From: an uncultured Gemmatimonadales bacterium
GTDB lineage: Bacteria; Gemmatimonadota; Gemmatimonadetes; Longimicrobiales; RSA9
Length of the DNA: 64,000 nucleotides
NCBI GenBank assembly: GCA_963798845.1
Contig: CAWCUS010000004.1
Span: 128,001-192,000, forward strand
Direction of reading: 5' to 3'
The stretch's first letter is position 1. Each line of letters starts with the position of its first letter. The notes under the pieces were generated by a model. It was not told the origin of the DNA. It saw nothing but the letters and a program-made list of their open reading frames with translations, and searched no databases. The position numbers were made by a program, and so were the translations under genes. Below are positions 45,819 through 60,620 of the stretch, piece by piece.

Positions 45819-46156
45819 GCGAATCGTATGAAGCAGCCGTTGTCGGCGACCCTTCGGCCGGCGGAGCGTCGCCGGGTGTGACGGAGGACGCCGTCCGGAC
45901 CGCGCTCGCCGGCGTGGTCGATCCGGAGATCGGACTGGACATCATCACCCTGGGCCTCGTCTACGACGTCGCCGTCGCAGCGGGCGAGGTCGCCATCGAC
46001 TACACCCTCACCACGCGCGGATGCCCGATGGAGGCGCACCTCGGCAACGCCATCGTGGCCGTCGTCGCGGCGCTCGAGGGCGTGGTCGGGGTGCACGCTC
46101 GCCTGGTCTGGGATCCGGGGTGGACCCCGGGGATGATCCAGGAGGGGGCATGGTGA
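45815..46156 (+). CDS. Metal-sulfur cluster assembly factor (DUF59/SufT-like)
   Basis: VVDPEIGLDII.LGLVY, TLTTRGCP, LVWDPGWTP.M. Confidence 0.9.
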   Translation: MSESYEAAVVGDPSAGGASPGVTEDAVRTALAGVVDPEIGLDIITLGLVYDVAVAAGEVAIDYTLTTRGCPMEAHLGNAIVAVVAALEGVVGVHARLVWDPGWTPGMIQEGAW

Positions 46157-47031
46157 TCCGCGCCAGTGATCGAGTGCTCGACGTGATCGGGCGCGACGAC
46201 TCCCTCATCGAGGTATTCGTCTCCGTCTCGCCCGCGTTCCGTCGCCTGCGGAGCCCCGCCTTGCGCAGGGTGATGGGACGCCTCGTCACCGTGGGACAGG
46301 CCGCCCGCGTGGCCGGGATGACCCCGGAAACGCTCGTGGCCCGCCTGAACGACCTGGTCGGCACTTCTGAAGCTGGCGGCGAGCCCCCGGAATGCCCGGC
46401 GGAGGCGCCGCCGGCGGGCGGCGACGGTGACGGAGCCGGCACCCCGGTGGAGCTCGCCGGCATCCCGTCCGAGAGGGTGGTGGAGCTGGACGTCCGCGAT
46501 GCGCTGAACAACGGGGAGGAGCCGTTCAGCCGCATCATGGCGGCGAAGCGCGAGGTCCCCCCCGGCGGCGCGCTGCGTCTGCGCGCCATCTTCGAGCCGG
46601 TCCCTCTCTACCAGGTGCTCGCCCGGCAGGGCATGCGGCACTGGACCGAGCGCCTGGCCGACGACGACTGGATCGTCTGGTTCTGGCCGGCCGCCGCCGA
46701 AACCGCCGCCGAAATCGCCGCCGCTCCGGCCGCCGCTCCGGCTGCAGGGTCCGGCGAGGCGGGCGGTGTCGGGAGCGGTGGGATGAACGGCGAGGGCGTC
46801 ATCGTCCTCGATGTGCGCGGACTGGAGCCCCCGGAGCCGATGGTGCGGACGCTGGCGGCGCTGGACCGGCTGCCGAAAGGCGACACGCTGGTGCAGGTGA
46901 ACGTGCGGGAGCCTCGCTTCCTGTTGCCACAGCTGCAGGAGCGCGGCTTCACCTGGGAAGTGCGGGAGCAGGATCCGGACCTGATCCGGGTCTTCATCAA
47001 ACACGCAGAACGAGGTGGAAACGATGGCTGA
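46150..47031 (+). CDS. DUF1858-like + tandem DUF2249 domain protein
   Basis: LDVR..L..GEEPF..IM...FEPVPLY; second domain LDVRGLEPPEPM...REPRFL. Confidence 0.8.
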   Translation: MVIRASDRVLDVIGRDDSLIEVFVSVSPAFRRLRSPALRRVMGRLVTVGQAARVAGMTPETLVARLNDLVGTSEAGGEPPECPAEAPPAGGDGDGAGTPVELAGIPSERVVELDVRDALNNGEEPFSRIMAAKREVPPGGALRLRAIFEPVPLYQVLARQGMRHWTERLADDDWIVWFWPAAAETAAEIAAAPAAAPAAGSGEAGGVGSGGMNGEGVIVLDVRGLEPPEPMVRTLAALDRLPKGDTLVQVNVREPRFLLPQLQERGFTWEVREQDPDLIRVFIKHAERGGNDG

Positions 47032-47305
47032 AGAAGCGAACACGAGCGGGGAAGCGGGCGAGGTCCTGGACGTGCGGATCATTCCGCCGCGGGACAAGCA
47101 CCCCACCATCTTCCGGACCTTCGAAGCGCTGGAGCCGGGCCAGGCGTTCGTGCTGGTGAACGACCACGACCCCAAGCCGCTGCGCTATCAGTTCGAGTTC
47201 GAGCGCAAGGGACAGTACGGCTGGGAGTACCTCGAGGAGGGACCGGAGACGTGGCGGGTGCGGCTCATCAAGCGCCCCGGCGCTTCCGCGCACGGGACCG
47301 CCTGA
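47024..47305 (+). CDS. DUF2249 domain protein
   Basis: LDVR.IPP..KHPTIF, LVNDHDPKPLRYQF, WEYLEEGPETWRV. Confidence 0.9.
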   Translation: MAEEANTSGEAGEVLDVRIIPPRDKHPTIFRTFEALEPGQAFVLVNDHDPKPLRYQFEFERKGQYGWEYLEEGPETWRVRLIKRPGASAHGTA

Positions 47306-47597: not shown

Positions 47598-48971
47598 ATG
47601 CTCTCATCCGTCATCCGCGCCGTGGTTGGCGCGGCTGTCCGCCTCTTCTACCGCCTCGAGCGTCGTGGCGCCGCCGTGGCGACGGGACCGGTCCTGCTGG
47701 CGGCGAACCACCCGAACAGCCTGCTGGACCCGATCATCGTGCTGGCCACGGCCGGGCGCCGGTCGCGGCCGCTGGCCAAGGCACCGCTGTTCGAGCGTGC
47801 CGTGGTGGGTCGTCTGATCCGGGCGCTCGGTGGGATTCCGGTGTACCGGCGCGAGGACGACCCTGCGAAGATGGAGCGCAACGAGGACGCGTTCCGGGCG
47901 GCTACGGCGGCGCTGCTGGCGGGGGACGCCGTCCAGATCTTCCCGGAAGGGCGGAGCCATTCTGACCCATCGATGTCGCCGCTTCGAACCGGTGCGGCGC
48001 GGATCGCGCTGCAGGCCGAGTCGGAGTCGAGCTGGAGGCTGGGGCTGGTGATCGTGCCGGTCGGCCTGACCTACGAGCGGAAACGGTTCTTCCGGGGCCG
48101 GGCGGTGGTGGTGTACGGCGACCCGATGGCTGTGTCGGGGTGGCGTGCGGCGTGGGAGCGGGACAGTCGTGATGCCGCGAGGCAGCTGACCGCGGCGTTG
48201 GACCTGCGGCTGCGGGCGCTCACGCTGAACCTGTCCGAATCGGAGGATACGGCGCTCATCGACACGGCCGAGCGCGTCTGGAGCCACGCGAAGGGTGTGA
48301 TCACCGTTCGGGAGCGTGCCTCGCTGGGCGAGCGGCTGCCGCGCCTGCGGGCGTTCGCGGAGGGTCTGGCGTGGCTGCGCGCGGTGGATCCGGCGCGGCA
48401 TCGTCGCCTGGCGGGGGACGTGCGGCGCTACCGTCGGGTCGCGGACCTGCTGGGCGCGGCGGAGGGCGACGTCCCCGACCGGTACCGGCTGGGGCCCTCG
48501 CTCCGCTGGGTGGCGACGCTGGGCCTGCCGGTGCTGCTCCTCTCACCTGTCGCCGTGCTGGCCGTGGCGTTCTGGTGGGTGCCATACCGCCTGGTCCGGC
48601 GGGTGGTCGCCGGAATGAAGCTGCCCGACGACATGGAGGCGACGTACAAGCTGGCGACGTCGTTTCTGGCGTATCCGTCGTTCCTCGGGTTGTGGACCGG
48701 GCTGGCATGGTGGTGGGGCGGGTGGCCGGCGGGCCTTCTGGCGCTGCTGCTGCTGCCCGCCGTCGGAGTCGCGGCGGTTGCGTGGCTCGACCGGGCCAGG
48801 GAGGCGAGGGCCGATGTCCGCCTCTTCCTCCGTCTGGGCCGTCACGCGCAACGAGCCGGGGAGCTGGCAGCTCGCCGGGCGCGGCTGGTGTCCGAGTTCG
48901 ACGCGGTTCAGGCGCTGCGCGCCGCCGACGACGTCAGCTCTTCTTCGCCGTCTTTGCGAAGAACGCGCTGA
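47598..48971 (+). CDS. Lysophospholipid/glycerol acyltransferase (PlsC family) with C-terminal TM region
   Basis: NHPNSLLD (HX4D), LAKAPLF, IPVYR, IFPEG.SH, IVPVGL. Confidence 0.9.
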   Translation: MLSSVIRAVVGAAVRLFYRLERRGAAVATGPVLLAANHPNSLLDPIIVLATAGRRSRPLAKAPLFERAVVGRLIRALGGIPVYRREDDPAKMERNEDAFRAATAALLAGDAVQIFPEGRSHSDPSMSPLRTGAARIALQAESESSWRLGLVIVPVGLTYERKRFFRGRAVVVYGDPMAVSGWRAAWERDSRDAARQLTAALDLRLRALTLNLSESEDTALIDTAERVWSHAKGVITVRERASLGERLPRLRAFAEGLAWLRAVDPARHRRLAGDVRRYRRVADLLGAAEGDVPDRYRLGPSLRWVATLGLPVLLLSPVAVLAVAFWWVPYRLVRRVVAGMKLPDDMEATYKLATSFLAYPSFLGLWTGLAWWWGGWPAGLLALLLLPAVGVAAVAWLDRAREARADVRLFLRLGRHAQRAGELAARRARLVSEFDAVQALRAADDVSSSSPSLRRTR

Positions 48972-49098
48972 AGACCTGCTCCACCCGCTTGCTCCCGCAT
49001 TTCGGGCACTTCGGGTGCGCGCTGCCGTGCTCTTCGATGTGCTCGGCCCGCTCGAACTCCTCCTGGCACTTGAGACAGCGGTAGAGATATCTGGGCAT
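48934..49098 (-). CDS. FmdB-family zinc-ribbon protein
   Basis: MPRYLYRCLKCQEEFE...CPKCGSKRVEQVFS...T.KKS; not called as its own ORF in the track; 3' end overlaps the convergent acyltransferase. Confidence 0.8.
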   Translation of the reverse strand: MPRYLYRCLKCQEEFERAEHIEEHGSAHPKCPKCGSKRVEQVFSAFFAKTAKKS

Positions 49099-49262
49099 CG
49101 GTCCATGTCCACGATGGGCCGGGTGGGCGGGCCTGCGAACGCGACCCGCGCCTCACGCCGGACGGGCCATTGATGATCATCGTAAGCCGCCATTGCGACC
49201 CCGTCCAGACCCGCCTCTTTCCGACCCGGGGAGGTTCAGGCCGCCGTCGGGAGCGCGCTGGA

Positions 49263-50987
49263 TCACGCGCGTCCGCTGCCGAACGTGGCCTGGACGTTCA
49301 CGCTCGAACGCAGCGCAGCGGCGTAGAAGCGAGCTTCCGCTCGCAGCCGCGATCCGTCCGTCGGGTCGGTCGCCTCCCTGGCGGCGAGCGCGGAATCGCC
49401 GTAGCACGCCGCGGCGTAGACGGGCCGGTACGCTGCCACTGCTCCGGCGTCCGCCGCCGCCGCGGCCCGACCGGCCGGCGGACCCCCGGCCGCGCTGCGG
49501 ACCGCCTGGCGGAAGTGTTCCGCGGCTGCGGGAGTCAGCTCCAGCTCGATGGTCGCGCCGGCCACGTCCCACGCCGGGTCGGCCGGTCCCGGGAGCCGGA
49601 GGCCGTCGCCGTGGTCCACGGTGTCGATCTTCACGGTGCCGCCCGCACCGGTGCGGATCCACTCCCACGGCTGCAGCCTCCCGTCTGGAATGGTAGCCTC
49701 CCGCTCCGGCAGGAGTTCCAGGGCGCGAGCGGCCCGGCCCAGCTCCTGCCGCTGGAGGCCCGCTTCGACGCCGTTCTCCAGCAGCAGGTTCGCCCACCAG
49801 GCGGCGTCGGCCGGCTGTCCCGTCCGGAAGCGCCCGGCCCGGACGGCGATGTAGCCGGCCATCGCGTTCGCGAGCACCGGATCCTGGCCGACGCCGCGGC
49901 GGAACGGCGTCCCCTCCACCCACGGGCGCGTGACGAAGCCGAGCCCTGCCATCTCCGTGGGTCCGGCCTTCCCATCCGACAGCGCGGCGGCGCGCTCGAG
50001 CCACCGGTCGAGCGACGCGCCCAGTCCGGCGTAGCGGACCATCCAGGACGGGCCGCCCTCCTCCTGCACGCGCGCCTTGAGCCGCTCGAAGTGGGGGGCG
50101 GCCGGGAGGTCCGCGGCGCCGAACACCCGGCGGCGCCACGCGCCGCGTGAGAGGTCCAGGGGCGGCGGCCAGCTGCGTGCGGAGGCGATCCTCGCGAGCC
50201 GGTCGTCGTCGAGACGCGGGAGATAGCGGCGGCTCCGGCGGAACCAGGCGCGACGCCCCTCCGGCGCGAGCGGCATGGCGCCGTCGTGGCTCGGGAACAG
50301 AACGATCCGGGTCTCGGGTACGCCGGACTGGCGCAGCCAGCGGGCGGTGCACTCGAACGTTTCACCCGTGACGCCCGGGCCTTCGTCGACCACGAGCACG
50401 TCTCCGCCGCTCGCGACCGCGTCCACGATCCGATCGGTGACCCGCTCGCTCGCGTCGATGCGGCGATGGCCGCTCTCGCCGTGCGGTCGAACCGTTACGG
50501 ACGTCCCGGCGCTCACCGCGGCCGCCACCACGCCGGAGAGGCTCGTCCCGATGCTGCGGATCCCCACCACCACCGCGAGGGGTGCGCGCTCCCCCGCATC
50601 GCGCCGATACGCCGCCGCCGATCGCCCGTAGGCGCGGGGGTCGAGGGCGTAGTGGGCGTACCCCTCCGGATCGCGGATCTCCAGCGCGGGCGGCAGCGCG
50701 GGGCGGACCTCGCCGAGGAGCGCGAGCGCCTCGGCCATCGGTCGCCTCCGTCCCTCCGCGGTCGGGGCGATATACGCCCGTCCGGCCGCGAGCGTGGCGG
50801 AGCGGAGCACCGCGTCGACCGGACCGAAATCGTCACGGGCGGGGTGCCGGGCGTCGGCCGCTCCCTGCTCCAGCCGCCCCACCTCGACGAGGAAATCGGC
50901 CGCTCGTCCTTCGCCGGCCAGGCGTCGGAGCGACCGGAGGCACTCGTCGGTCGTGGCCGTGCGGATGACGTCGCGGTAGACGATCAC
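49263..50987 (-). CDS. Uncharacterised fusion: PRTase-like domain + phosphotransferase-like C-terminus
   Basis: PEGYAHYAL, VVGIRSIGTSL, VLVVDEGPGVTGET; C-terminal DGRLQPWEW, KIDTVDH, PAWDVAG; GTG overlaps the upstream stop. Confidence 0.7.
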   Translation of the reverse strand: MIVYRDVIRTATTDECLRSLRRLAGEGRAADFLVEVGRLEQGAADARHPARDDFGPVDAVLRSATLAAGRAYIAPTAEGRRRPMAEALALLGEVRPALPPALEIRDPEGYAHYALDPRAYGRSAAAYRRDAGERAPLAVVVGIRSIGTSLSGVVAAAVSAGTSVTVRPHGESGHRRIDASERVTDRIVDAVASGGDVLVVDEGPGVTGETFECTARWLRQSGVPETRIVLFPSHDGAMPLAPEGRRAWFRRSRRYLPRLDDDRLARIASARSWPPPLDLSRGAWRRRVFGAADLPAAPHFERLKARVQEEGGPSWMVRYAGLGASLDRWLERAAALSDGKAGPTEMAGLGFVTRPWVEGTPFRRGVGQDPVLANAMAGYIAVRAGRFRTGQPADAAWWANLLLENGVEAGLQRQELGRAARALELLPEREATIPDGRLQPWEWIRTGAGGTVKIDTVDHGDGLRLPGPADPAWDVAGATIELELTPAAAEHFRQAVRSAAGGPPAGRAAAAADAGAVAAYRPVYAAACYGDSALAAREATDPTDGSRLRAEARFYAAALRSSVNVQATFGSGRA

Positions 50988-51991
50988 TCCGTGGCCCGCC
51001 TGTGGACGTCCCGATGCGACATGCCGGAGCCGAGCCGCCTCGCCTCCTCGACGACCGTGACGGCCACCGCATCCGCGTGGTCGGCCAGGCCCGAACCGGC
51101 CGCGTGCAGCCCCATGTTCACGAGCTGGTAGGCCCGGTAGAAGGACAGCAGGAGCGGGTCGGCGTCGCGGCCCCATCCATCGAGCAGGTGCGGGAGCCAG
51201 TCCCATGTCCACGGCTGTCCGAAGAGTGGACCGTGCAGGATCTCCGTCTTGGCGATCTCGGCCTCGGGCGGACCTGAGAAGGCGTCCTCGAAGTCGATGG
51301 CGCCGATGCACTCGACCTGCGGCTCCTCGCGGCAGATCACGTTCTGGTCGAAGAGGTCGTTATGGACCAGAACGGGCGGCCGACCCTCGTTCGCCCGGGC
51401 GGCGTCGGGAGTGGCTTCGAGCAGCAGCTCCACCGCTTCCACGCCGGTCGGCCAATGCTCCGTGACGGCAGGCAGGAGCCGGTCGGCAAGGTCGAGCTCC
51501 ATGAACCGCTCCAGCGGTGTGTCGTCGCGCACCGATTCGACCACCGGTCCGTGCCCGGGCAGCTCGACCGTCTGGAGGCTTCGGATCAGGGCGCCCCAGC
51601 CGCGCACCACTCGCCCGCGATCGCCCTCGATCACGTCCGGCCACAGCTCGTGCAGCGTCGGGCCTGCGACCCACCAGTAGATCAGGACCGCCTCATCGGC
51701 CAGCTCGTCCGGGGTGGGGACGTAGCGTGGAGTCTTGAGCCCCGGTACCTCCGCCACGAGCTGTGCCGCCAGCCGCGACGCCCGGAAACGGTAGATGTTC
51801 GCCGGATCCCGCGCGCGCTTGATGACCAGGATCCGGCCGTCCCCGAGGTGCACTTCGTCCACGCTGTTGCTGTGCCGGTCGCGCCGGATCACGTGGTAGT
51901 CGGCGGGACTGTCCGCGCGCTCGCCGATGTGGTCGAGCACCACGCCGGCGGCTTCGTGAACCTCGGCGGACGCCGGTCGCCTGCCTCTCAT
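50984..51991 (-). CDS. Aminoglycoside phosphotransferase (APH/choline kinase) family protein
   Basis: LVIKR, PVLVHNDLFDQNV, AIDFEDA..GPPE.E. Confidence 0.82.
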   Translation of the reverse strand: MRGRRPASAEVHEAAGVVLDHIGERADSPADYHVIRRDRHSNSVDEVHLGDGRILVIKRARDPANIYRFRASRLAAQLVAEVPGLKTPRYVPTPDELADEAVLIYWWVAGPTLHELWPDVIEGDRGRVVRGWGALIRSLQTVELPGHGPVVESVRDDTPLERFMELDLADRLLPAVTEHWPTGVEAVELLLEATPDAARANEGRPPVLVHNDLFDQNVICREEPQVECIGAIDFEDAFSGPPEAEIAKTEILHGPLFGQPWTWDWLPHLLDGWGRDADPLLLSFYRAYQLVNMGLHAAGSGLADHADAVAVTVVEEARRLGSGMSHRDVHRRATE

Positions 51992-52344
51992 GCCTCCGCC
52001 CCGCTTCCGTCACCGTGCCAGTGCGGCCGGAAATCCTCCAGCGCCGCCAGCGTTTCGGCGAAATCGCCGCGGAAGGGAACCGCGCGGTCGTCCACGTACG
52101 CCAGCGCCGGCAGCTTGCGGTCCGTCACTCTGGCGACGAACCGGTCCAACCCGTGCCTCGCCAGCCACGCCCTCGCCGCCGCCGGGTCCCGTGTCGTCAG
52201 GACGACGATTTCGTGCCCCCTCTGCGCGAGCGCCTCCAGAAATGCCGCCGCTCCCGGCCGCGGAGCATGCCACGTGACCTCGCCCCGCCACCCGCTGTAC
52301 GTGTCCAGGACCCCGTTGAGGTCGACGCATATCCGCTTCTTCAT
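51988..52344 (-). CDS. Small capless HAD-superfamily protein
   Basis: ICVDLNGVL, PRPGA..FL, VLTTR, K.PA..YVDDRA. Confidence 0.78.
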   Translation of the reverse strand: MKKRICVDLNGVLDTYSGWRGEVTWHAPRPGAAAFLEALAQRGHEIVVLTTRDPAAARAWLARHGLDRFVARVTDRKLPALAYVDDRAVPFRGDFAETLAALEDFRPHWHGDGSGAEA

Positions 52345-52363
52345 GGTGTCCACACCTTCTCCC

Positions 52364-52996
52364 TCAGGCCACGTCGCGCCAGGCAGTGGCCGCCCCGGTG
52401 CGCTCCAGCACGACCAGGGAACAGTGCTCGGGCGTGATGCTCGCGTAGCTGTTCAGATCCCGGCCCTCGTAGTGCGCCCACGCCAGCCGGATCGCCGCGA
52501 GATGCGTCACGCACAGAGCGCGGCCGGTCCGCGCCATGATGCGCTCGAGCGCTGCCACCACCCGCCGCTGCGTGGCCGCCAGTCCCTCGTGACCCGGCAT
52601 GCTCAGAGCCGCCGGATCCGCTTGCCAGAGCGCGTGCATCGCCGGATCGCGCGCCTCGATCTCCCCGTCCGTCAGCCCTTCCCAGGGACCGAGAGCCATC
52701 TCCCGCAGGTCGGGCTCCACGCGTACCTCGCACTCCAGGCTCGGCGCCAGGATTCGGGCGGTCTCCATTGCCCTCGCCAGGGGGCTGCTCCACACCCCGT
52801 CCACGCGCAGGTAGCGCAGCCGCCGGCCCAGCGCGCGCGCCTGCTCTCTGCCATCGCGCCCGAGCGGCTCGTCCAGCATCCCGAGCCTTCGGCCCGACAA
52901 ATTCGCCTCCGTCACTGCGTGGCGGACCAGGTACAGCGTCCTGGTACGCTCGACCGTTCCGAACCCGCCGCCGCGGGCGCCCGTGTCCGTGCTGAT
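52364..52996 (-). CDS. Histidine phosphatase family protein (start uncertain)
   Basis: LVRHA.T..N, SSPL.RA.ETA, LRE..LG.WEG, VTH; no ATG in frame near the start (ATC at 52996 after GAGAGGT, or TTG at 53023). Confidence 0.85.
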   Translation of the reverse strand: MSTDTGARGGGFGTVERTRTLYLVRHAVTEANLSGRRLGMLDEPLGRDGREQARALGRRLRYLRVDGVWSSPLARAMETARILAPSLECEVRVEPDLREMALGPWEGLTDGEIEARDPAMHALWQADPAALSMPGHEGLAATQRRVVAALERIMARTGRALCVTHLAAIRLAWAHYEGRDLNSYASITPEHCSLVVLERTGAATAWRDVA

Positions 52997-53033
52997 GCGA
53001 CACCTCTCGGTTCCTCGTTCCAACCCCGTATAC

Positions 53034-53050
53034 CGCAACCCGAATGCCGG
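53034..53050 (-). promoter_or_regulatory. Putative sigma54 promoter of the leftward operon
   Basis: Minus strand CGGCATTCGGGTTGC = GG-N10-GC with TTGC. Confidence 0.55.
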
Positions 53051-53180
53051 CAGCCGCCATGCTCCCGGACGCCGCTGACAACCCCGCCCCGGCCAGTGGG
53101 GGCGGACCATGCGCGGATCCGCCGGCCCGCACCGGCGCGGCGTCGGCTCGCTTCGTGGACCCCCTCCCGCCGCTCCCTCG

Positions 53181-53197
53181 TCGGCGCGTGTCTTGCA
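53181..53197 (+). promoter_or_regulatory. Putative sigma54 promoter
   Basis: CGGCGCGTGTCTTGCA = GG-N10-GC with TTGCA, ~50 nt before ATG 53246. Confidence 0.55.
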
Positions 53198-53245
53198 CGC
53201 CGGTCGCGCTCGGCTGGCTCGCGTCGACGAAGGAGAGGGAAGGGA

Positions 53246-53551
53246 ATGACGGCAGACAACGCGGCTGACCGAGCTGCGGAGGAGGAGGGCGCCGCCCGCG
53301 CCGGGAGAGAGGCTGCCGACGAGCTGCGCGGGCAGCTCTTCACCGGGCTCGACCGCCTCGCCTTCGCCCTGGAGATGGAAGCCGCCGAAGCGGTCGAGCG
53401 CGGAGACGGCGAGGGTGCGGCGCGTCTGGAGGACCGGCGCCTCGGCGTCCGGCTGGCGCAGCGGCTCGTAGCCGGCGTTTACGCGGACGAAGTGGACCGC
53501 CGCATCGCCGCCACGGGGGAGGCGTACCACGACCGCACCGTCATGGAATGA
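53246..53551 (+). CDS. Hypothetical acidic helical protein
   Basis: Purine-rich RBS (AAGGAGAGGGAAGGG), GC3-biased codons. Confidence 0.6.
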   Translation: MTADNAADRAAEEEGAARAGREAADELRGQLFTGLDRLAFALEMEAAEAVERGDGEGAARLEDRRLGVRLAQRLVAGVYADEVDRRIAATGEAYHDRTVME

Positions 53552-54437
53552 CCTGCGCCACCGCTTCCGGAGCGTACCGGCGCGCCACCCTCCCGGCAAA
53601 CTCGCCGAACGCGGCGATCTCCCGGGGTGGGCTCGTGTGGTGCGGCCGGACCCCCAGGCTCGGGGGCGTGAAGCACAGCGTCGCGCACACCTCGAACGGC
53701 TCGAGCGCCGCCATGACCGTGTCGAACCAGCCCCAGCCTCCCTCCATGTGGCTCTCCGCCCAGCTCAGTCCCGTGCGCACCCGGCGCACGCCCAGCCGCT
53801 CGAACCACTTCACGGCCAGCGCCAGCGACCGCTCGTCCCGGTACTGGAACCACTGGCAGATGCCCAGCCACGGGTCGTACTCCGACAGCGCCGGCTTCGG
53901 CGTCCCGTCGTGCTCCAGCAGCCCGAAGTGGAAGTGGCGGAAGTAGCCGCTCCCCTCCGCCTGCTTGTGCCGCGTCGTCGCCTCCACGGCCGGCTCCAGG
54001 TCCAGCAGCGTGTACCAGTACACTTCCTCCCCGGCCAGGACCTCCTTCATGCGGCGCATGCCCCACGCCGCCTTCGCCCCCGTCGCGAACGACGATACGC
54101 CGGTCTCCGTCACCCACACCGGCAGGCCGAACTCCTCGCGCACCCGACCAATCTGCTCCGGCCAGGCCTCGATCGGCCACAGGTTCCAGTCCAGCGGGAA
54201 GCCGTGCACTGCGAGCACGTCCACTCCTTCCAGCGCGCCACGCTCCCGGAGCCGACGCAGGAAGCGCGGATCGATCGGCGACATGCCGCCCAGCACGATC
54301 GGAAGCTCCGTGTGCTCCCGCACCCCCGCCACACCGTGCTTCAGCATCTCCGCGAACTGCGCCCACCCCTCGTCCACCTCGGTGTCCCAGTGGGATACGT
54401 TGTTCGGCTCGTTCCATATCTTGATCGACTTCAGCAT
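53541..54437 (-). CDS. Clan GH-A glycoside hydrolase ('beta-xylosidase'-like)
   Basis: IWNEPNN (acid/base), LGGMSP, AVHGFP, WVTETG (nucleophile), WYTLLD, HFGLL..DG.PK. Confidence 0.8.
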   Translation of the reverse strand: MLKSIKIWNEPNNVSHWDTEVDEGWAQFAEMLKHGVAGVREHTELPIVLGGMSPIDPRFLRRLRERGALEGVDVLAVHGFPLDWNLWPIEAWPEQIGRVREEFGLPVWVTETGVSSFATGAKAAWGMRRMKEVLAGEEVYWYTLLDLEPAVEATTRHKQAEGSGYFRHFHFGLLEHDGTPKPALSEYDPWLGICQWFQYRDERSLALAVKWFERLGVRRVRTGLSWAESHMEGGWGWFDTVMAALEPFEVCATLCFTPPSLGVRPHHTSPPREIAAFGEFAGRVARRYAPEAVAQVIP

Positions 54438-54505
54438 GCGCGCTCCCGCTTCCCGATGCTGCGACGGACCGACGCGCGCGTCGGTCCGGATCAGGCTCCG
54501 AAGGG

Positions 54506-54522
54506 CGCAAGGATTGTTCCCC
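54506..54522 (-). promoter_or_regulatory. Putative sigma54 promoter of the glycoside hydrolase
   Basis: Minus strand GGAACAATCCTTGC = GG-N10-GC with TTGC. Confidence 0.5.
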
Positions 54523-54535
54523 GGACAGGCTCCCC

Positions 54536-55147
54536 ATGACGGGTCTGCTCCTCGTCCGTCACGCTTCGGTCGACGGTCTCGGGCGCGTCCTCGCCGGCCG
54601 CACGCCCGGCATCCACCTCCATGACCGGGGGCGTGCCGAAGCCGATGCCCTCGCTCGCTCCCTCGCCGACGTACCCATCCGGGCCGTCCACGCCGGGCCC
54701 CTCGACCGTGCCCGCGAGACCGCCGCGCCCCTGGCCGCGATTCACGGTCTCGACCCGACCATCGACCCCGCCTTCGACGAGGTGGATTTTGGCGTGTGGA
54801 CCGGCGTCGCGTTCCAGGAGCTGGACGCCCGCGAGGACTGGCGTCGCTGGAACGAGCAGCGCGCCACTGCCCGACCGCCCGGCGGGGAGTCCATGGCCGA
54901 CGTGCTGGACCGCGCCCTCTCCGGCGTGCGCGCACTTCGGGCCGCTCACGGGGAGGGCCGGGTGGTTGTGGTGAGCCATGGCGACGTCATCCGCCCCCTC
55001 ATCGCCCATTTCCTCGGGCTCCACCTCGACCACCTCCTCCGCTTCGAGGTGGCTCCGGCCTCCATCAGCGCCGTTTCCCTGGAGGACGCCGGTGCCCGCG
55101 TCCTCGCGGTAAACCGCACGATCGGGCCGCCCTGGGCGGCTCCCTGA
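54536..55147 (+). CDS. Histidine phosphatase family protein
   Basis: LVRHA, PL.RARETA, EVDFG.WTG, PGGES, VSHGDVIR. Confidence 0.88.
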   Translation: MTGLLLVRHASVDGLGRVLAGRTPGIHLHDRGRAEADALARSLADVPIRAVHAGPLDRARETAAPLAAIHGLDPTIDPAFDEVDFGVWTGVAFQELDAREDWRRWNEQRATARPPGGESMADVLDRALSGVRALRAAHGEGRVVVVSHGDVIRPLIAHFLGLHLDHLLRFEVAPASISAVSLEDAGARVLAVNRTIGPPWAAP

Positions 55148-55277
55148 CCGCGGATCCGCGATCCCGTTGAGCGCAGTGGGAGGGATCGGGGCGCCGCGCC
55201 ATGTGCGGATGGGTGGCGTTCGCGTTGGCGGACCGAGATTCTGGACCATCTCATCGTAATTCGGTACCTTGGGACCC

Positions 55278-57950
55278 ATGCCCCCCCCACCCGCGCGCCT
55301 CCTCGCGGCCCTTTCCGATCGCTACCGGATCGGAGACGAGCTCGGCGAAGGCGGCATGGCCACGGTCTACCTGGCCGAGGACCTCCGCCACCACCGCCAG
55401 GTGGCCATCAAGGTGCTGAAGCCCGAGCTGGCCGCCGTCCTGGGCGCCGACCGCTTCGTCCAGGAGATCACCACCACCGCCCAGCTCCAGCACCCCCACA
55501 TCCTCCCGCTCTTCGACTCCGGCACCGCCGACGGCTTCCTGTATTACGTGATGCCGTACATCGAAGGCGAGACCCTTCGGGACAGGCTGAACCGCGAGAC
55601 GCAGCTCGGCGTGGGCGAGGCGGTCCGGATCACGCGCGAGGTGGCCGACGCGCTGGACTACGCGCACCGGCATGGCGTGGTCCACCGGGACATCAAGCCG
55701 GAGAACATCCTGCTGCACGATGGCCGGCCCATGGTCGCCGACTTCGGGATCGCGCTCGCGGTCTCCGCGGCGGCGGGGGGGCGGATGACCGAGACGGGCC
55801 TCAGCCTCGGGACACCGCATTACATGAGTCCGGAGCAGGCGACGGCGGAGAAGGACCTCACCGGGCGCAGCGACGTCTACTCGCTCGCGAGCGTGCTGTA
55901 CGAGATGCTCACGGGCGACCCGCCGCACACGGGCTCCTCCGCCCAGCAGATCATCATGAAGATCGTGACGGAGGAGGCTGCGCCGGTCACGAAGCTGCGG
56001 AAGTCGGTGCCGCCCAACGTGGCGGCCGCGGTGGCGAAGGCGCTGGAGAAGCTGCCGGCCGACCGCTTCGAGACCGCCGCCGAGTTCTCCGACGCCCTGG
56101 CGGACCCGCATTTCTCGGCCCCGCCGGTACCGGCCGGCCGCCCCCCGGCCGGCGCAGTCGGTGCCCGCGCGGTGGCGCGCCACCCGCTCGTCCTGGGTCT
56201 CGCGGCGGTTCTCATCGCGACCGCGGGCTTCGCGGGGTCGCAGTGGCGTGTCGCGCACCGCGAGGCGCAGAGCCCCGTCGTGCGGTTCCAGCTCGGCCTG
56301 CCCTCGTCGATGCTCGTCACGAATGCGGCAGTCGCGACGAACGTCGCCGTTTCCGAGGACGGAAGGACCATCGCCTACGCGCTCCCGGACTCGACTGGCG
56401 CATCACGGCTGTTCGTCCGGCCTCTCAGTCGCGGCGGGGCGGGGGTGATCGCCGGCACGGATGGGGCGCAGCAGCCCTGCTTCTCGCCCGACGGCCAGTG
56501 GATCGCCTATCTCGTCGGAACCACCGTCTGGAAGGTCCAGGCTGCCGGTGGCACGCCGGTCCGCGTCGGGGATACCGGTACGGCGGCCACCGGGCTCACG
56601 TGGAGCCGCTCCGGCGAGATCGTCGTGGGGACCACCCCGGGTCTCTTCGTGCTTCCGCAGGGTGGCGGCGCGGCGCGGCTTCTCGTCGGGCCCGATTCCG
56701 CAGCGGGAGAGCTGTACTTCGGTCAGCCTCGCGCGCTGCCGGACGGCAACACCGTGCTCTTCTCGATTCAGCCCGCCAGCGGGGTGGCCCAGACTCGCCT
56801 CGCCGCCGTGCCGCTGTCCACCGGGAAGGTGCGGCGATTCGACGTCGGAGTGCTGGATGCGCTCGGGTACTTGGACGGCACGCTGGTCTACGTCCTCCCT
56901 TCGGGCGCGCTCATGGGCGTCCCCTTCGATCTCGCGAGTGGTCGCGCGACAGGAGCGCCCGTGGGGCTCGGCCCCATCGTCACCACGACAGTGGCCGGGA
57001 CCAGCATGGCGGCCCTGTCGCCCACCGGGACGCTGGTCTACGAGCCGGCCACGAGCCAGGCCACGCTCGGCTGGGTGGACGTGCACGGTCAGTTCACGCC
57101 GCTGCTGTCCAGGCTGCAGGCGTACGCCTATCCCCGGCTCTCCCCGGATGGCAAGCGGATCGCGATGGCCATCGGGGGGGACGGGCGCTCCGACATCTGG
57201 CTTTACGACATCGCGTCCCGCACGCCGACGCGGATCTCGAATTCCGGTACCCAGAACGACCGCCCGGAGTGGTCGCCCCATGGGCGCCGCGTGCTGTATC
57301 GCTCGGATCGCAGCGGCCGGCCCGCCATCTGGTGGCAGCCGGCGGACCAGAGCGCCCCCGCGGCGCCGCTGGAGTCGGACGGCCAGCACAGCTTCTACGA
57401 GGGTGTTCTCACGCCCGACGGCGGGTCGCTCGTCTACCAGATCGACGATGCGGGGGCGGACCAGGCGGACATCATGTACCGGGCGCTCGACGGCGACACG
57501 GCGCCGCGTCCCGTAGCGGCCACCCGCTTCGTGGAAGCGCAGGCGCGCGTTTCGCCCGACGGTCACTGGGTGGCCTTCGTCACCGATGCCTCCGGGACCT
57601 CGCAGGTCGTGGTGCAGCCGTTCCCCGGACCGGGAGGCCAGGTGCAGGTTTCCGTCTCGGGCGGCGCGGAGCCGGTGTGGAGCCACGATGGAAAGCGCCT
57701 CTTCTACCGCGACGGTCACCATGTGGTCGCCGCATCCGTGAGCACGGCGGCCGGGTTCGCCGTCACCGGTCGCACCGACCTCTTCGCCGACACCTACGTC
57801 TTCGCCTCCGCGCCGCACGCCAACTACGACGTGTCGGCGGACGGGACGCGCCTGCTGATGGTGAAGAGCGCGCAGAAGCCGGAGTACGTGGTCGTCTACG
57901 GCTGGCGCAGCGAGCTGGCCGCGCGGATGCGCGGCGCCGGAGGATCATGA
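55278..57950 (+). CDS. Ser/Thr protein kinase with TM helix and TolB-like (PD40) beta-propeller, copy 1
   Basis: GEGGMATVY, VAIK, HRDIKPEN, DFG, GTPHYMSPE; TM; repeated (F/W/L)SPDG. Confidence 0.93.
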   Translation: MPPPPARLLAALSDRYRIGDELGEGGMATVYLAEDLRHHRQVAIKVLKPELAAVLGADRFVQEITTTAQLQHPHILPLFDSGTADGFLYYVMPYIEGETLRDRLNRETQLGVGEAVRITREVADALDYAHRHGVVHRDIKPENILLHDGRPMVADFGIALAVSAAAGGRMTETGLSLGTPHYMSPEQATAEKDLTGRSDVYSLASVLYEMLTGDPPHTGSSAQQIIMKIVTEEAAPVTKLRKSVPPNVAAAVAKALEKLPADRFETAAEFSDALADPHFSAPPVPAGRPPAGAVGARAVARHPLVLGLAAVLIATAGFAGSQWRVAHREAQSPVVRFQLGLPSSMLVTNAAVATNVAVSEDGRTIAYALPDSTGASRLFVRPLSRGGAGVIAGTDGAQQPCFSPDGQWIAYLVGTTVWKVQAAGGTPVRVGDTGTAATGLTWSRSGEIVVGTTPGLFVLPQGGGAARLLVGPDSAAGELYFGQPRALPDGNTVLFSIQPASGVAQTRLAAVPLSTGKVRRFDVGVLDALGYLDGTLVYVLPSGALMGVPFDLASGRATGAPVGLGPIVTTTVAGTSMAALSPTGTLVYEPATSQATLGWVDVHGQFTPLLSRLQAYAYPRLSPDGKRIAMAIGGDGRSDIWLYDIASRTPTRISNSGTQNDRPEWSPHGRRVLYRSDRSGRPAIWWQPADQSAPAAPLESDGQHSFYEGVLTPDGGSLVYQIDDAGADQADIMYRALDGDTAPRPVAATRFVEAQARVSPDGHWVAFVTDASGTSQVVVQPFPGPGGQVQVSVSGGAEPVWSHDGKRLFYRDGHHVVAASVSTAAGFAVTGRTDLFADTYVFASAPHANYDVSADGTRLLMVKSAQKPEYVVVYGWRSELAARMRGAGGS

Positions 57951-57970
57951 GCCAGTGCGGATGAGCGTCC

Positions 57971-60620
57971 ATGGATAGTGTGGCGGATCGACTCGGCCGC
58001 GCGCTGGCCGGCCGCTACCGCCTGGAGCGCGAGCTGGGCGAGGGTGGCATGGCCACGGTGTTCCTCGCCCGCGATCTCAAGCACGAGCGCGACGTCGCCA
58101 TCAAGGTCCTCAAGCCCGAGCTGGCCGCCGTCCTCGGCGCCGACCGCTTCGTCACCGAGATCAAGACGACGGCGGCGCTCCAGCATCCCCACATCCTCCC
58201 CCTCTTCGACTCCGGCACAGCCGACGGCTTCCTCTTCTACGTCATGCCATACATGGAAGGGCGAGACACTGCGGGACAGGCTGAACCGGGAGACGCAACT
58301 CGGCGTCGAGGAGGCGGTGCGCATCACGCGCGAGGTGGCCGACGCCCTCGACTACGCCCACCGCCACGGCGTGATCCACCGCGACATCAAGCCCGAGAAC
58401 ATCCTGCTGCACGACGGCCGGCCAATGGTGGCGGACTTCGGCATCGCGCTGGCGGTGAGCGCGGCGGCGGGCGGGCGCATGACGGAGACGGGGCTGAGCC
58501 TCGGCACGCCCCACTACATGAGCCCCGAGCAGGCGACGGCGGAGAAGGACCTGACCGGGCGATCCGACGTCTATTCGCTGGCGAGCGTTCTCTACGAGAT
58601 GCTCACCGGCGACCCGCCGCACACGGGCAGCTCGGCGCAGCAGATCATCATGAAGATCGTGACGGAGGAGGCCGCGCCGGTCACGAAGCTGCGGCGGTCG
58701 GTGCCGCCCAACGTGGCGGCCGCCGTGGCGAAGGCGCTGGAGAAGCTGCCGGCGGACCGGTTCGAGAGCGCGAAGGCGTTCGCCGACGCGCTGGCCGATC
58801 CCGCCTTCCGACTGACCGACGCCGCCACCGCGGGCCCCGTGCTCGCCTCTCGGAAGCCCTGGGCCGTCGCCGCGGCGTCCCTGATCGTCGCGGCGCTCTC
58901 GCTGGCCGTCGCGGGCTGGGTCCTGATGCGGCGCCCGACCGGAGTCCGGGACATCGGAACCCCGCCGACGAGCGCGGTCAACGTCACCACCGAGGATCGG
59001 GCTTTCTCGGTGGCGCCCGACGGGTCGTTCGTGGTCTATACCGCGCAGAAGGGGGCTACCACCGAGCTGTGGTACCAGAGCCTGAGGACGGGAGAGGGTC
59101 ACCCCATTCCGGGCACGGTCGGGACATTCACCGCGCCGTGGATCTCGCCCGACGGCAAGCGCGTGGCGGTGGGCGTCCCCGCCGGCAGCGGCTATCAGCT
59201 GAAGTCGGTGGGGATCGACGGGGGGACCGTGTCCCCCGTCGCTTCCATCACGCTTCCATTCGGCGGAACCTGGACGGATGACGGGAGGATCTTCTTCAGC
59301 GATGACAACGGACGTCTGCTCCGCTGGCTGGACCCGCTGGGCGGCGACGCGCGTGAGATCACGGTTGGAGGATACTGCCTGAATCCCGTGCTCATCGGAA
59401 CCGGCGACCAGGTGATCTGCGGAGGCGGCGCCGACAAGTTCGCCTCCATCCGCAACCTGGCGGATCCGGGCCGCATTCGGTACTGGCATCACGCGGCCGA
59501 GGGGCGCGGCGGGAAGGCCGCGCTGCTGCGCGGCGCGGACTTCCGCGTGGTCGATGGCCGGTACCTGGTCTACATGGGCGTCGACGGAACCATCATGGCC
59601 ACGCGCATCCGGAGCGTCGACTCGCTCACGGTCGGCCGATCCGTCTCTCTCGTAGCCGGCGTACGCAATGGAGACTACAGCGGCACCGGCCAGTTCGACC
59701 TGACCCGTGACGGCACCCTCGTCTACCTGCCGGGAACCAACGCGGCCGTGGGCCGCCTCGTGAGCGTCGGCACGGATGGGCGCATCGAGCCGCTGCCGGT
59801 GGAGCAGGCCGCCCACCTGCGCTTCCGCGAGAGCCCCGATGGCCGGCGGTTGGCAACGGTGGTGGAAGGTCTCGAACAGCAGGAGCTGCGCGTCTACGAT
59901 CTGCAGGCGGGCACACACGAGACCGTGGCCGTCGGCTCGTTCATCGACGTTCCGGTGTTCAGCCCGAGTGGCGACCGTATCGCTTACTCGATCAGCGAGG
60001 AACCGGGTCGAGAATCCCTCGTCTCCCGGCTGCTCGATTCCTCGACGAAGCCTCGGGAACTCGCCACGATCGCGCCCCCTGCCACGTTCCGGCCGTCCAT
60101 GTATCTGGCCAATGATTCCCTGCTGGTTGGATTCCCGGGGGGCGAATCCGCAATGATCGTGGGTTCAGACGGTGGAGTCGACTCGCTCGGCCTTGCCACC
60201 GGTCAGTTCGTGTCCATCTCCCCGGGCGGTCACTGGATCGCGTACCAGGGGAATTCGTCGGGAGATCTGCGGGTCCAGCCGTGGCCGGCGCTCGATCGGC
60301 GCTATTTCGTGGATGCCCGGGGCATCGAGCCGCAGTGGGTATCGGCGACCGAGCTGGTCTATCTCGCGCAGACGATCGAGGGCGACTGGGAGTTCCACGA
60401 GGTGACGATCCATCCTGGCGCCGATCCACCGTTCGACGCGCCCGAGCTCCTCGCCCTGGCCCCGCAGTTCAGCCAGACGCCCGGCTGGTCGTGGGCCGTT
60501 GGCCATGACGGAGGCCTCATCTACCTGCAGTCTCCGGCCGAGCGGGCGGAGCACTATTTCCGGGTCATCCCGAACTGGGTCAGGCACATGGAGCGCGCCG
60601 TGGACCAGGCGAACCCATGA
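57971..60620 (+). CDS. Ser/Thr kinase-PD40 protein, copy 2, frameshifted at ~58260
   Basis: Kinase N-lobe in ORF 57971 and the rest in ORF 57978; extra G in GAA-GG(G)C-GAG relative to the paralogues. Confidence 0.9.

Follow-up and report, generated by a model that had tools for sequence, protein, structure and literature searches.

The seven-gene locus at positions 49263-55147 of the 64,000-nucleotide stretch of an uncultured Gemmatimonadales genome analyzed here (the window) very probably belongs to a widespread, uncharacterized glycan-assembly system, in which it is the phosphotransfer-and-hydrolase arm of cytoplasmic glycan assembly and not a self-contained pathway. The genes, designated A to G, encode a fusion of a phosphoribosyltransferase (PRTase)-like domain with a kinase domain (A), a canonical APH-family kinase (B), a capless HAD phosphatase (C), two histidine phosphatases (D and G), a small helical protein (E), and a predicted circularly permuted glycosidase (F). 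The initial annotation of the window had regarded them as a compact pathway that adds phosphates to a sugar or similar compound and removes them again. That the genes belong together is confirmed by the neighborhoods of A and F and by their phyletic co-occurrence, and the addition and removal of phosphates fits the pairing of A with phosphatases; the idea of a stand-alone small-molecule pathway fared less well, as the partner enzymes lie elsewhere in the genome.

Protein A (49263..50987, minus strand; 574 aa) matched no family in Pfam or NCBIfam, and a Pfam scan of 38 of its homologs returned PF00156 as the sole family, in 3 of the 38. The Protein Atlas gave only clusters of “hypothetical protein” for A, and the names found on homologs were “hypothetical” or, once, “phosphoribosyltransferase”; the taxa named for the nearest homologs suggest Gemmatimonadota, Longimicrobiales-like. 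The AlphaFold2 (AF2) model built with the 38 homologs (pLDDT, 93.7; pTM, 0.92) was compared with known structures using Foldseek and VIA alignment, and the PRTase/kinase-like fusion proposed in the initial annotation is well supported by it: a four-helix N-terminal domain precedes a PRTase-like domain at residues 109–258 and a choline-kinase/APH-like domain at 259–574. Among the best 50 matches listed by VIA, the kinase domain agreed best with choline kinase (2ig7; Z 18.2, rmsd 4.1, 275 aligned, A residues 259–568), and residues 109–258 were matched by PRPP (phosphoribosyl pyrophosphate) synthetase (3mbi; Z 12.8, rmsd 2.5, 124 aligned), APRT (4trb; Z 12.6), and HGXPRT (4z1o; Z 12.3), that is, by type-I PRTase folds at Z 12–12.8. 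Foldseek retrieved MphH and ChoK at E ~1e-6. The PRPP/ribose-5-phosphate loop of the PRTase-like domain, VVDEGPGxTGET, has D201, E202, G203, P204, G205, and G208 invariant both in the 38 sequences and in 24 sequences of the domain; in addition to DEGPG 201–205 and G208, the residues invariant in the 38 sequences include G142, R144–G147 (R-S-I-G), R167, R175, D435, and D455, and two arginines at the flexible-loop position are invariant. The kinase domain keeps the catalytic and metal-binding aspartates (D435 and D455) but lacks the asparagine of the HxDxxxxN (Brenner) motif. The family comprises 1801 representative clusters at E<=1e-30, and its architecture is fixed.

The strongest functional clue comes from the genes that accompany A. 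A scan of one genome per species gave at least 562 loci with a relative of A, the best 80 of which were examined. Of 78 loci, 29 have a phosphatase gene no farther than 350 bp from A, and these enzymes represent four unrelated folds, namely GmhB-like HAD (9 loci), His_Phos (7), DSP (7), and capless HAD (6); in 11 of the 29, the flanks hold no other gene of the system. Furthermore, all five of the tested A homologs of 742–779 aa carry a C-terminal HAD domain (P0253, P0283, P0320, P0329, and P0342), and none of the five tested homologs of 621–668 aa has an extra domain. Because unrelated phosphatase folds interchange beside A, and because fusions with HAD exist, the product of A would be a phosphomonoester whose phosphate must come off.

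Protein F (53541..54437, minus strand; 298 aa) gave only weak Pfam matches (Glyco_hydro_cc, 3.1e-4; GH53, 8.5e-4). The profile of its family, by contrast, matched PslG, the Psl hydrolase of Pseudomonas aeruginosa (4zn2 and 5bx9), at E 5.1e-9 in two pieces whose order is swapped: residues 2–156 of F align with PslG 131–304, and residues 197–293 with PslG 21–128. F therefore departs from the canonical 1–8 order of strands, in that it begins at strand 4, which carries WNEPNN, and has strands 1–3 last. All 18 aligned homologs begin within a few residues of WNEPNN, and the gene preceding F in locus L025 ends 10 nt ahead of it. The AF2 model of F (pLDDT, 83.6) contains eight strand/helix units; Foldseek with this model retrieved generic TIM barrels only, with PslG at rank 49, and the permutation was called from the sequence profile, not from Foldseek. 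Because of the PslG match in swapped pieces, the starts at WNEPNN, and the eight-unit model, F is assigned by its sequence to a circularly permuted PslG-like barrel (GH39, clan GH-A) in which both catalytic glutamates are kept. In the 18 sequences, which come from several phyla and have a mean column identity of 67%, E10 (NEP, acid/base) is invariant and E111 (TE-x-G, nucleophile) is near-invariant. PslG is the closest solved relative of F; the two enzymes share the NEP acid/base and the TE-x-G nucleophile and both occur within a polysaccharide gene set, but F is permuted, is shorter (~295 aa versus 416), lacks the C-terminal domain, and has no signal peptide by inspection. A 559-aa protein of the GH5 cellulase family adjoins A in some Myxococcota loci, where it stands beside F or replaces it (L020, 11609-13288, minus strand; also L019 and L035).

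The neighborhoods of A and F point to glycan assembly. The proteins of the window were compared with the 80 loci by tblastn, and the open reading frames (ORFs) were separately clustered all against all with shadow ORFs flagged, so that the counts from the clustering refer to 81 sequences, the 80 loci and the window. By tblastn, F occurs within 10 kb of A in 39/80 loci, at ~50% identity across phyla, and one locus (L002) shows complete synteny, G-F-E-D-C-B-A, at 51–75% identity. By clustering, F is present in 37 of the 81 sequences, CgeB-type glycosyltransferases in 35 (92 copies), and a methyltransferase in 35; SDR epimerase/dehydratases follow in 25, a sugar-1-phosphate nucleotidylyltransferase-like protein (NTP-transferase) in 19, GT4 enzymes in 18 and in 11, GFO/IDH/MocA oxidoreductases in 18, zinc-dependent alcohol dehydrogenases (Zn-ADH) in 17, an MsbA/ChvA/HepA-like ABC exporter in 13, PIG-L in 10, myo-inositol-1-phosphate synthase (MIPS) in 8, and a FemAB-like GNAT in 7. 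In the related loci, A is accompanied by three or four CgeB-type genes. Two copies of the methyltransferase were tested, and both belong to TIGR04290 (meth_Rta_06860; 329.5 bits in L064 and 322.8 bits in L025, cut-off 300), a family that NCBIfam grades only as a “hypothetical equivalog.” The order typical of Gemmatimonadales is, on one strand, two epimerases, Zn-ADH, GFO, GT4, three CgeB-type genes, the methyltransferase, A, and HAD, with F, the NTP-transferase, and a further CgeB-type gene on the other strand, followed by HP and the ABC exporter. The 80 loci come from Gemmatimonadota, Acidobacteriota, Myxococcota, Alpha- and Gammaproteobacteria, Chloroflexota, Nitrospirota, Fibrobacteres, Ignavibacteria, and Planctomycetes, as named in their records.

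In the genome from which the window derives (G000), the rest of the set was sought with PF13524 and tblastn over the contigs, followed by Pfam searches of the regions found, and the system proved to be split over three sites. Besides the A-G locus itself (C4:177263-183147), one minus-strand block at C1:~699350-707790 contains the methyltransferase, two SDR epimerases, Zn-ADH, GFO/IDH/MocA, GT4, and two to three CgeB-type genes, and one extra CgeB-type glycosyltransferase lies at C4:~198350-199650, ~15 kb past the locus. The methyltransferase (C1:707110-707781) scored 316.9 bits with TIGR04290, above the cut-off of 300. A MIPS gene is present at C2:867044. The tblastn searches of this genome gave no orthologs of the NTP-transferase (best match, 29% identity, E 1e-8), PIG-L, or the GmhB-like HAD, only distant matches, and for GNAT6 and DSP there was no match at E<=1e-3. 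Just upstream of the methyltransferase-glycosyltransferase block lie a gene for a 507-aa PPDK_N (pyruvate phosphate dikinase ATP-binding) protein (L091, 16460-17983; G000:C1:~710460-711983, minus strand) and a LysM/SLT transglycosylase gene.

The phyletic pattern links A and F with the methyltransferase. Of 151 genomes sampled evenly across the phylum, which are related and give non-independent counts, five contain A and exactly the same five contain F; TIGR04290 was found in 4 of these five and was absent from the remaining 146. One of the A/F holders (G057) is unpublished; leaving it out gives A in 4, F in 4, and TIGR04290 in 3 of 150. The co-occurrence persists where the genes are unlinked, as in the present genome and in G106. 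The initial annotation had proposed examining the neighborhoods of A and F homologs across phyla, and the two do co-occur in other genomes, both within 10 kb of each other and in the same five members of the phylum. In G027, a genome of the same family as that of the window (L092/L093, contigs C93/C68), each of A and F is broken across two reading frames, and Zn-ADH, GFO, and the methyltransferase are left as fragments only. This copy is either a decaying system or the result of assembly errors, and it looks like decay.

How might such an enzyme set work? In two reports on glycan ribofuranosyltransferases, a PRTase-like transferase adds ribofuranose-5-phosphate from PRPP and a phosphatase then frees the 5-OH for extension (PMC11231755 and PMC10299916). 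By analogy, we tentatively put forward a mechanism in which a phosphoribosyl group is transferred from PRPP to a glycan or primer and then dephosphorylated, as a reasonable possibility short of a probable one. It draws on the domains of A, the phosphatase link, the glycan context, the phyletic pattern, the set in the own genome, the catalytic glutamates of F, and the sigma54-like sites described below. From the folds, motifs, gene coupling, co-occurrence, phosphatase adjacency and fusion, and split layout observed, we infer the donor, the acceptor, the order of the steps, and the product as follows. The PRTase domain of A would bind PRPP and transfer ribofuranose-5-phosphate onto a hydroxyl group of the glycan or primer, or onto a phosphate installed by the kinase domain, and the partner phosphatase (here C, D, and/or G) would take off the 5-phosphate, which would allow assembly to proceed. 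The kinase domain of A, together with B in this lineage, might phosphorylate the glycan or the acceptor, and the signal-less, permuted PslG-like glycosidase F might trim or recycle the glycan. WbdD-type chain terminators of ABC-transporter-dependent O-antigens combine a kinase and a methyltransferase to cap the chain. A WbdD-like phosphate or methyl-phosphate cap would be one option for the kinase and methyltransferase of the present system, because the methyltransferase gene lies directly ahead of A in many relatives. The two kinds of system are alike in that genes for a kinase and a SAM (S-adenosylmethionine) methyltransferase adjoin each other in a glycan cluster that also contains an ABC exporter, but here the proteins are separate and belong to other families, and in the own genome the genes lie on different contigs.

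The closest mechanistic parallels are gPRT-PRP of the Klebsiella O4/O7 antigens and CriT-CrpP of the Haemophilus influenzae b polymerase Bcs3, in both of which a PRTase-like module is tied or fused to a phosphatase within a glycan cluster with an ABC exporter. CrpP retains only the first aspartate of its DxD motif, and C of the window likewise has DLN (PMC11231755/PMC10299916). On the other hand, no sequence similarity to these proteins was detected when the profile of the PRTase domain of A was searched against PDB sequences, and A has extra choline-kinase-like and N-terminal helical domains. The partner phosphatase of A can be of any of four folds, and CrpP carries a helical cap, a feature missing from C and from the GmhB-like HAD.

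Several observations weigh against phosphoribosyl transfer as the role of A. The PRPP loop is equally a ribose-5-phosphate loop, and the best structural match of the domain is PRPP synthetase. The profile of the PRTase domain matched nothing significantly among all PDB sequences, with only APRT at E 1.5, and the characterized glycan PRTases were not confirmed to be among the chains searched. The scheme assigns no convincing task to the kinase domain of A, which is devoid of the HxDxxxxN asparagine. In the gene set, neither a ribose-specific gene nor a polyprenyl-phosphate priming enzyme was seen, and the names given to the clusters are the Pfam matches of one representative each. Moreover, A has no gene of the system within 10 kb in 33 of 78 loci, so part of the A family may work outside the glycan context. 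As for regulation, the sigma54-like sites in the window carry two to three mismatches, a three-mismatch site is expected in ~5% of any 100 nt, and none of the 18 strong matches to bacterial enhancer-binding proteins (bEBPs) in the genome is near the locus.

The main alternative is the activation of a sugar in the manner of heptose, which is conceivable but doubtful. The PRTase-like domain of A would hold a sugar 5-phosphate such as ribose-5-phosphate, the kinase domain would phosphorylate C1 to yield the 1,5-bisphosphate, the phosphatase would remove the distal phosphate, and the NTP-transferase would yield an NDP (nucleoside diphosphate)-sugar for the CgeB-type and GT4 enzymes. Both domains of A get a job in this way, ribose-5-phosphate is bound by PRPP synthetase, the best match of the PRTase fold, and the kinase fold of A includes anomeric sugar kinases, with NahK at Z 16.0, MTR kinase at Z 14.8, and maltokinase at Z 13.4. 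The HAD that adjoins or is fused to A is GmhB/histidinol-phosphatase-like, with 69.9 bits for NF006506, a score above the cut-off for TIGR01662, and a CPH...CxC motif, and the NTP-transferase-like gene, found in 19/81 sequences, stands in a row with the capless HAD and A in L018, L023, and L038. In the heptose nucleotide-sugar pathway, too, a kinase and an NTP-transferase are combined with a phosphatase, GmhB, which the HAD-IIIA enzyme of the present loci resembles. However, no SIS isomerase was seen in the gene set, the HAD score of 69.9 bits is far from the GmhB cut-off of 178, and the kinases of the heptose pathway are not known to have the ChoK/APH-plus-PRTase fold of A. The NTP-transferase is missing from most A loci and has no ortholog in the own genome, DSP and His_Phos enzymes freely replace HAD, and the scheme implies a donor of the NDP-ribose type; we know of no NDP-ribose donor for glycans.

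A more elaborate version of phosphoribosyl transfer would use every activity in line: a hydroxyl group of the glycan or primer is phosphorylated by the kinase, PRPP is coupled to that phosphate by the PRTase, and the 5-phosphate is removed by the fused or adjacent phosphatase. The outcome would be a soluble, methylated glycan, built in the cytoplasm, that bears a pentofuranose in phosphodiester linkage, and the conserved GFO/Zn-ADH pair could epimerize this sugar. Such an assembly line is improbable as a whole. Mycobacteria make arabinose donors by way of decaprenyl-phosphoribose, and the assembly line, if real, would be a lipid-free counterpart of this decaprenyl-phosphoribose/arabinose route, distributed over many phyla and processed by a permuted GH39-like hydrolase.

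A and B could also phosphorylate a stored cytoplasmic polysaccharide reversibly for its mobilization, with F hydrolyzing the polymer and C, D, and G clearing the phosphates. Starch is mobilized in a parallel manner by dikinases, glucan phosphatases, and amylases. The locus does encode two kinases, three phosphatases, and one hydrolase, none of which has a signal peptide judging from inspection of the N termini, and DSP-type phosphatases accompany A in seven loci. A dedicated cytoplasmic hydrolase within a glycosyltransferase and methyltransferase cluster is also found in the mycobacterial methylmannose polysaccharide (MMP) system, whose cluster combines the cytoplasmic glycosyltransferases and methyltransferases ManT, MeT1, and MeT3 with the hydrolase MmpH (PMC9883506); in the related MGLP (methylglucose lipopolysaccharide) system, the His_Phos enzyme GpgP is reported to dephosphorylate the primer (PMC3240985). 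Still, a kinship of MmpH with F was considered and rejected, since MmpH forms an (alpha/alpha)6 barrel and is not homologous to F (PMC9883506); the glycosyltransferase and methyltransferase families differ from those of the present system, and the MMP set is not known to contain a PRTase-kinase protein. Mobilization is quite improbable: it leaves the conserved PRPP-type loop of A unexplained, it does not account for the A-phosphatase pair in 11 loci that lack F and glycosyltransferases, and the ABC exporter of 13 loci points to export of the product.

A stand-alone small-molecule pathway that is independent of the distant glycosyltransferase block and yields a phosphorylated cyclitol, a nucleoside-like metabolite, or a compatible solute has a similarly slim chance. 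It would suit the 11 loci in which A and a phosphatase occur without other system genes, and an inositol link is hinted at by the MIPS gene, which the own genome has and which in several alphaproteobacterial loci adjoins A, and by the IolG-like and IolM-like oxidoreductases in the wider gene set. It is hard to reconcile, however, with a polysaccharide-type hydrolase related to PslG, or with the restriction of A and F to the same 5/151 genomes and the presence of the methyltransferase in 4 of the 5, even where unlinked. A nucleoside-like product brings to mind the Ter-cluster PRTase/HAD system, which presumably has PRTase families of its own; Pfam searches with A and its 38 homologs returned only PF00156 (3/38) and no such family. 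A chance grouping of housekeeping phosphatases, kinases, and a hydrolase that have nothing to do with one another has next to no probability, for although B occurs in only one related locus, E is lineage-restricted, and His_Phos and HAD genes are common, it is already contradicted by the neighborhood, fusion, and phyletic evidence, by the 4-nt overlaps of start and stop codons, and by the full synteny of L002 at 51–75% identity.

The gene set thus seems to be built from known superfamilies, and the PRTase-kinase(-HAD) enzyme and the permuted GH39-like hydrolase seem to be undescribed, with no model in Pfam, NCBIfam, or PADLOC. The initial annotation knew of no characterized pathway with this composition, and none was found here in NCBIfam, Pfam, PADLOC (for A), or the literature. 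The literature searches, which extended to permuted PslG and to PRTase-choline kinase fusions but left subscription journals mostly uncovered so that a description elsewhere is possible, gave no description of such a system and no paper on TIGR04290/Rta_06860. PADLOC gave no match for any of the seven proteins, and a reading of the locus as a defense system is unsupported. If the glycan-assembly interpretation is correct, hundreds of species possess a gene set for an undescribed glycan, and, if A transfers phosphoribose, environmental bacteria would join the few pathogens in whose capsules and O-antigens PRPP-dependent glycosylation has so far been documented. Because A, F, and the TIGR04290 methyltransferase co-occur almost exactly, they can serve as markers for locating the system, and it can be tested in cultivable holders such as Archangium, Corallococcus, Sinorhizobium terangae, Devosia, and Rubellimicrobium.

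Within the locus, the seven genes were called from third-position GC and from Pfam and NCBIfam domain searches; mechanical ORF lists are crowded because the window has a G+C content of 71%. The gene content given in the initial annotation agrees with this call, and so does the translational coupling of the HAD, APH kinase, and fusion genes: the stop codon of C overlaps the start of B in ATGA, and that of B overlaps the GTG start of A in GTGA, both junctions having been read in the sequence. The gap from the D stop to the ATG of C is ~19 nt and contains the Shine-Dalgarno-like GGGAGAAGG. Because of the two overlaps and this short gap with its Shine-Dalgarno-like GGGAGAAGG, D-C-B-A is a single tight operon on the minus strand. 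G (plus), F (minus), and E (plus) are transcribed separately, which makes four transcription units instead of the three originally counted; E and F are convergent, and their 3' ends share 11 nt. A scan of 48900-55400 for sigma70 promoters and intrinsic terminators found no site of either kind. A search of sequencing runs listed no RNA run with the sequence and only two DNA runs with small shares of its words.

B (50984..51991, minus strand; 335 aa) has an APH domain (PF01636, E 2.8e-13, above the cut-off), and its motifs HNDLFDQN and IDFED represent the full HxDxxxxN loop and the metal-binding aspartate. No match was found for B among PDB sequences, and an origin as a paralog of the kinase domain of A was rejected (hhalign probability, 0.4). 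Because tblastn detected it in just 1/80 related loci (L002), B appears to be a lineage-specific addition. C (51988..52353, minus strand; 118–121 aa; HAD PF00702, E 3.2e-6) has homologs in 8/80 loci and adjoins A in 6. The eight family members (114–128 aa), read by eye, share motif I VDL(D/N)GVL, motif II T-x-R, motif III with the lysine in TDRK, and motif IV DDRA and have no cap insert; motif I is DLN in the window copy and DLD in 5/8 members. Against PDB sequences, C gave a weak match only (E 0.088).

D, the first gene of the operon (52364..~53023, minus strand; PF00300 His_Phos_1, branch 1, E 4.3e-48), has an uncertain start; shortly before the domain, TTG 53023 and TTG 53038 are the sole ATG, GTG, or TTG codons in frame. 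G (54536..55147, plus strand) matched PF00300 at E 6.5e-52 and has homologs of 39–61% identity in 25/80 A loci by tblastn. Both proteins remain below the cut-offs of TIGR03848 (MSMEG_4193 subfamily; G 177.1 bits and D 95 bits versus 203.85) and of CobC TIGR03162 (121–125 bits versus 162.9), and by their scores they are classified as members of the histidine phosphatase superfamily only, with G nearest the MSMEG_4193 subfamily.

E (53246..53551, plus strand; 101 aa) has no family match and 543 homologs at E<=1e-3, mostly 60–77% identical and all unnamed, from which it is judged to be a real, strongly conserved small protein. It occurs in 1/80 related loci (L002, again between F and D) and in 2/151 genomes of the phylum, and both of these genomes contain A as well. 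E might serve its lineage as an accessory or regulatory protein.

The initial annotation placed a sigma54-type promoter before each of three transcription units, which overstates the case. The sigma54 consensus is TGGCAC-N5-TTGCW, and site scores given here refer to it. The site before D (CGGCAT-TCGGG-TTGCG; 53034..53049, minus strand) has three mismatches; it gains weight because L002 carries CGGCAC-CCTCA-TTGCA, with one mismatch, at about the same distance, which was estimated as ~95 nt ahead of the conserved LYLVRH motif of its D gene. The site before F (GGGAAC-AATCC-TTGCG; 54506..54521, minus strand), with three mismatches and 69 nt before the ATG, is more weakly indicated by the GG and TCCTTGCG that L002 keeps at the same spacing. 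The site earlier assigned to G (54503..54518, plus strand) has GT in place of GC at -12. Before E, CGGCGC-GTGTC-TTGCA (53182..53197, plus strand) lies 49 nt from the ATG and has two mismatches, for which the chance is ~0.6% per 100 nt; upstream of E in L002, no similar site was found by reading.

Matches to the consensus are not enriched over the window (143 seen versus 176.5 expected), and the bare motif TGG-N10-TGC occurs 39 times against 34.7 expected. Genome-wide, sites with GG/GC intact occur at 5.8e-5 per strand-nt for up to two mismatches and at 5.1e-4 for up to three. Further sites with up to two mismatches precede the C1 operon of the own genome and, by 70 nt, A in G106; judging from a reading of coordinates, they also occur upstream of the ABC-exporter ORF in L037, L040, and L044. 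The genome possesses rpoN and the 18 strong bEBP matches. Taken together, sigma54 control of D-C-B-A is rather likely from the sites compared.

The divergent intergenic region between F and G contains a perfect 24-nt GC-rich palindrome (54465..54488), read in the sequence, and a different GC-rich palindrome is found at the same place in L002. The palindrome could be an operator or a hairpin in a 5'-untranslated region; we make no claim of an RNA element because the fold energy of the intergenic region is not unusual (z 0.47).

Around the locus, a 54-aa ORF (48937-49098, minus strand; MPRYLYRCLKCQ...CPKCGS...) with two CxxC pairs is convergent with A and overlaps the 3' end of an acyltransferase ORF (47598-48971, plus strand); we take it to resemble the FmdB-type zinc-ribbon proteins. 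Farther upstream, a run of small genes at 45820-47305 (plus strand) encodes an FeS_assembly_P domain protein, a DUF1858 and DUF2249 protein, and a DUF2249 protein and is preceded by genes for an HD_4 protein and for a membrane protein whose COX1-like match is weak; no relation of this run to the A-G locus is apparent. Directly after G, the region 55269-63307 (plus strand) contains at least two tandem fusions of a Ser/Thr protein kinase with a PD40/TolB-like beta-propeller (893 and 880 aa), a third long ORF at 60509-63307 has a codon bias like that of the two kinase-PD40 genes, and another PD40 protein is encoded just past the end of the window.

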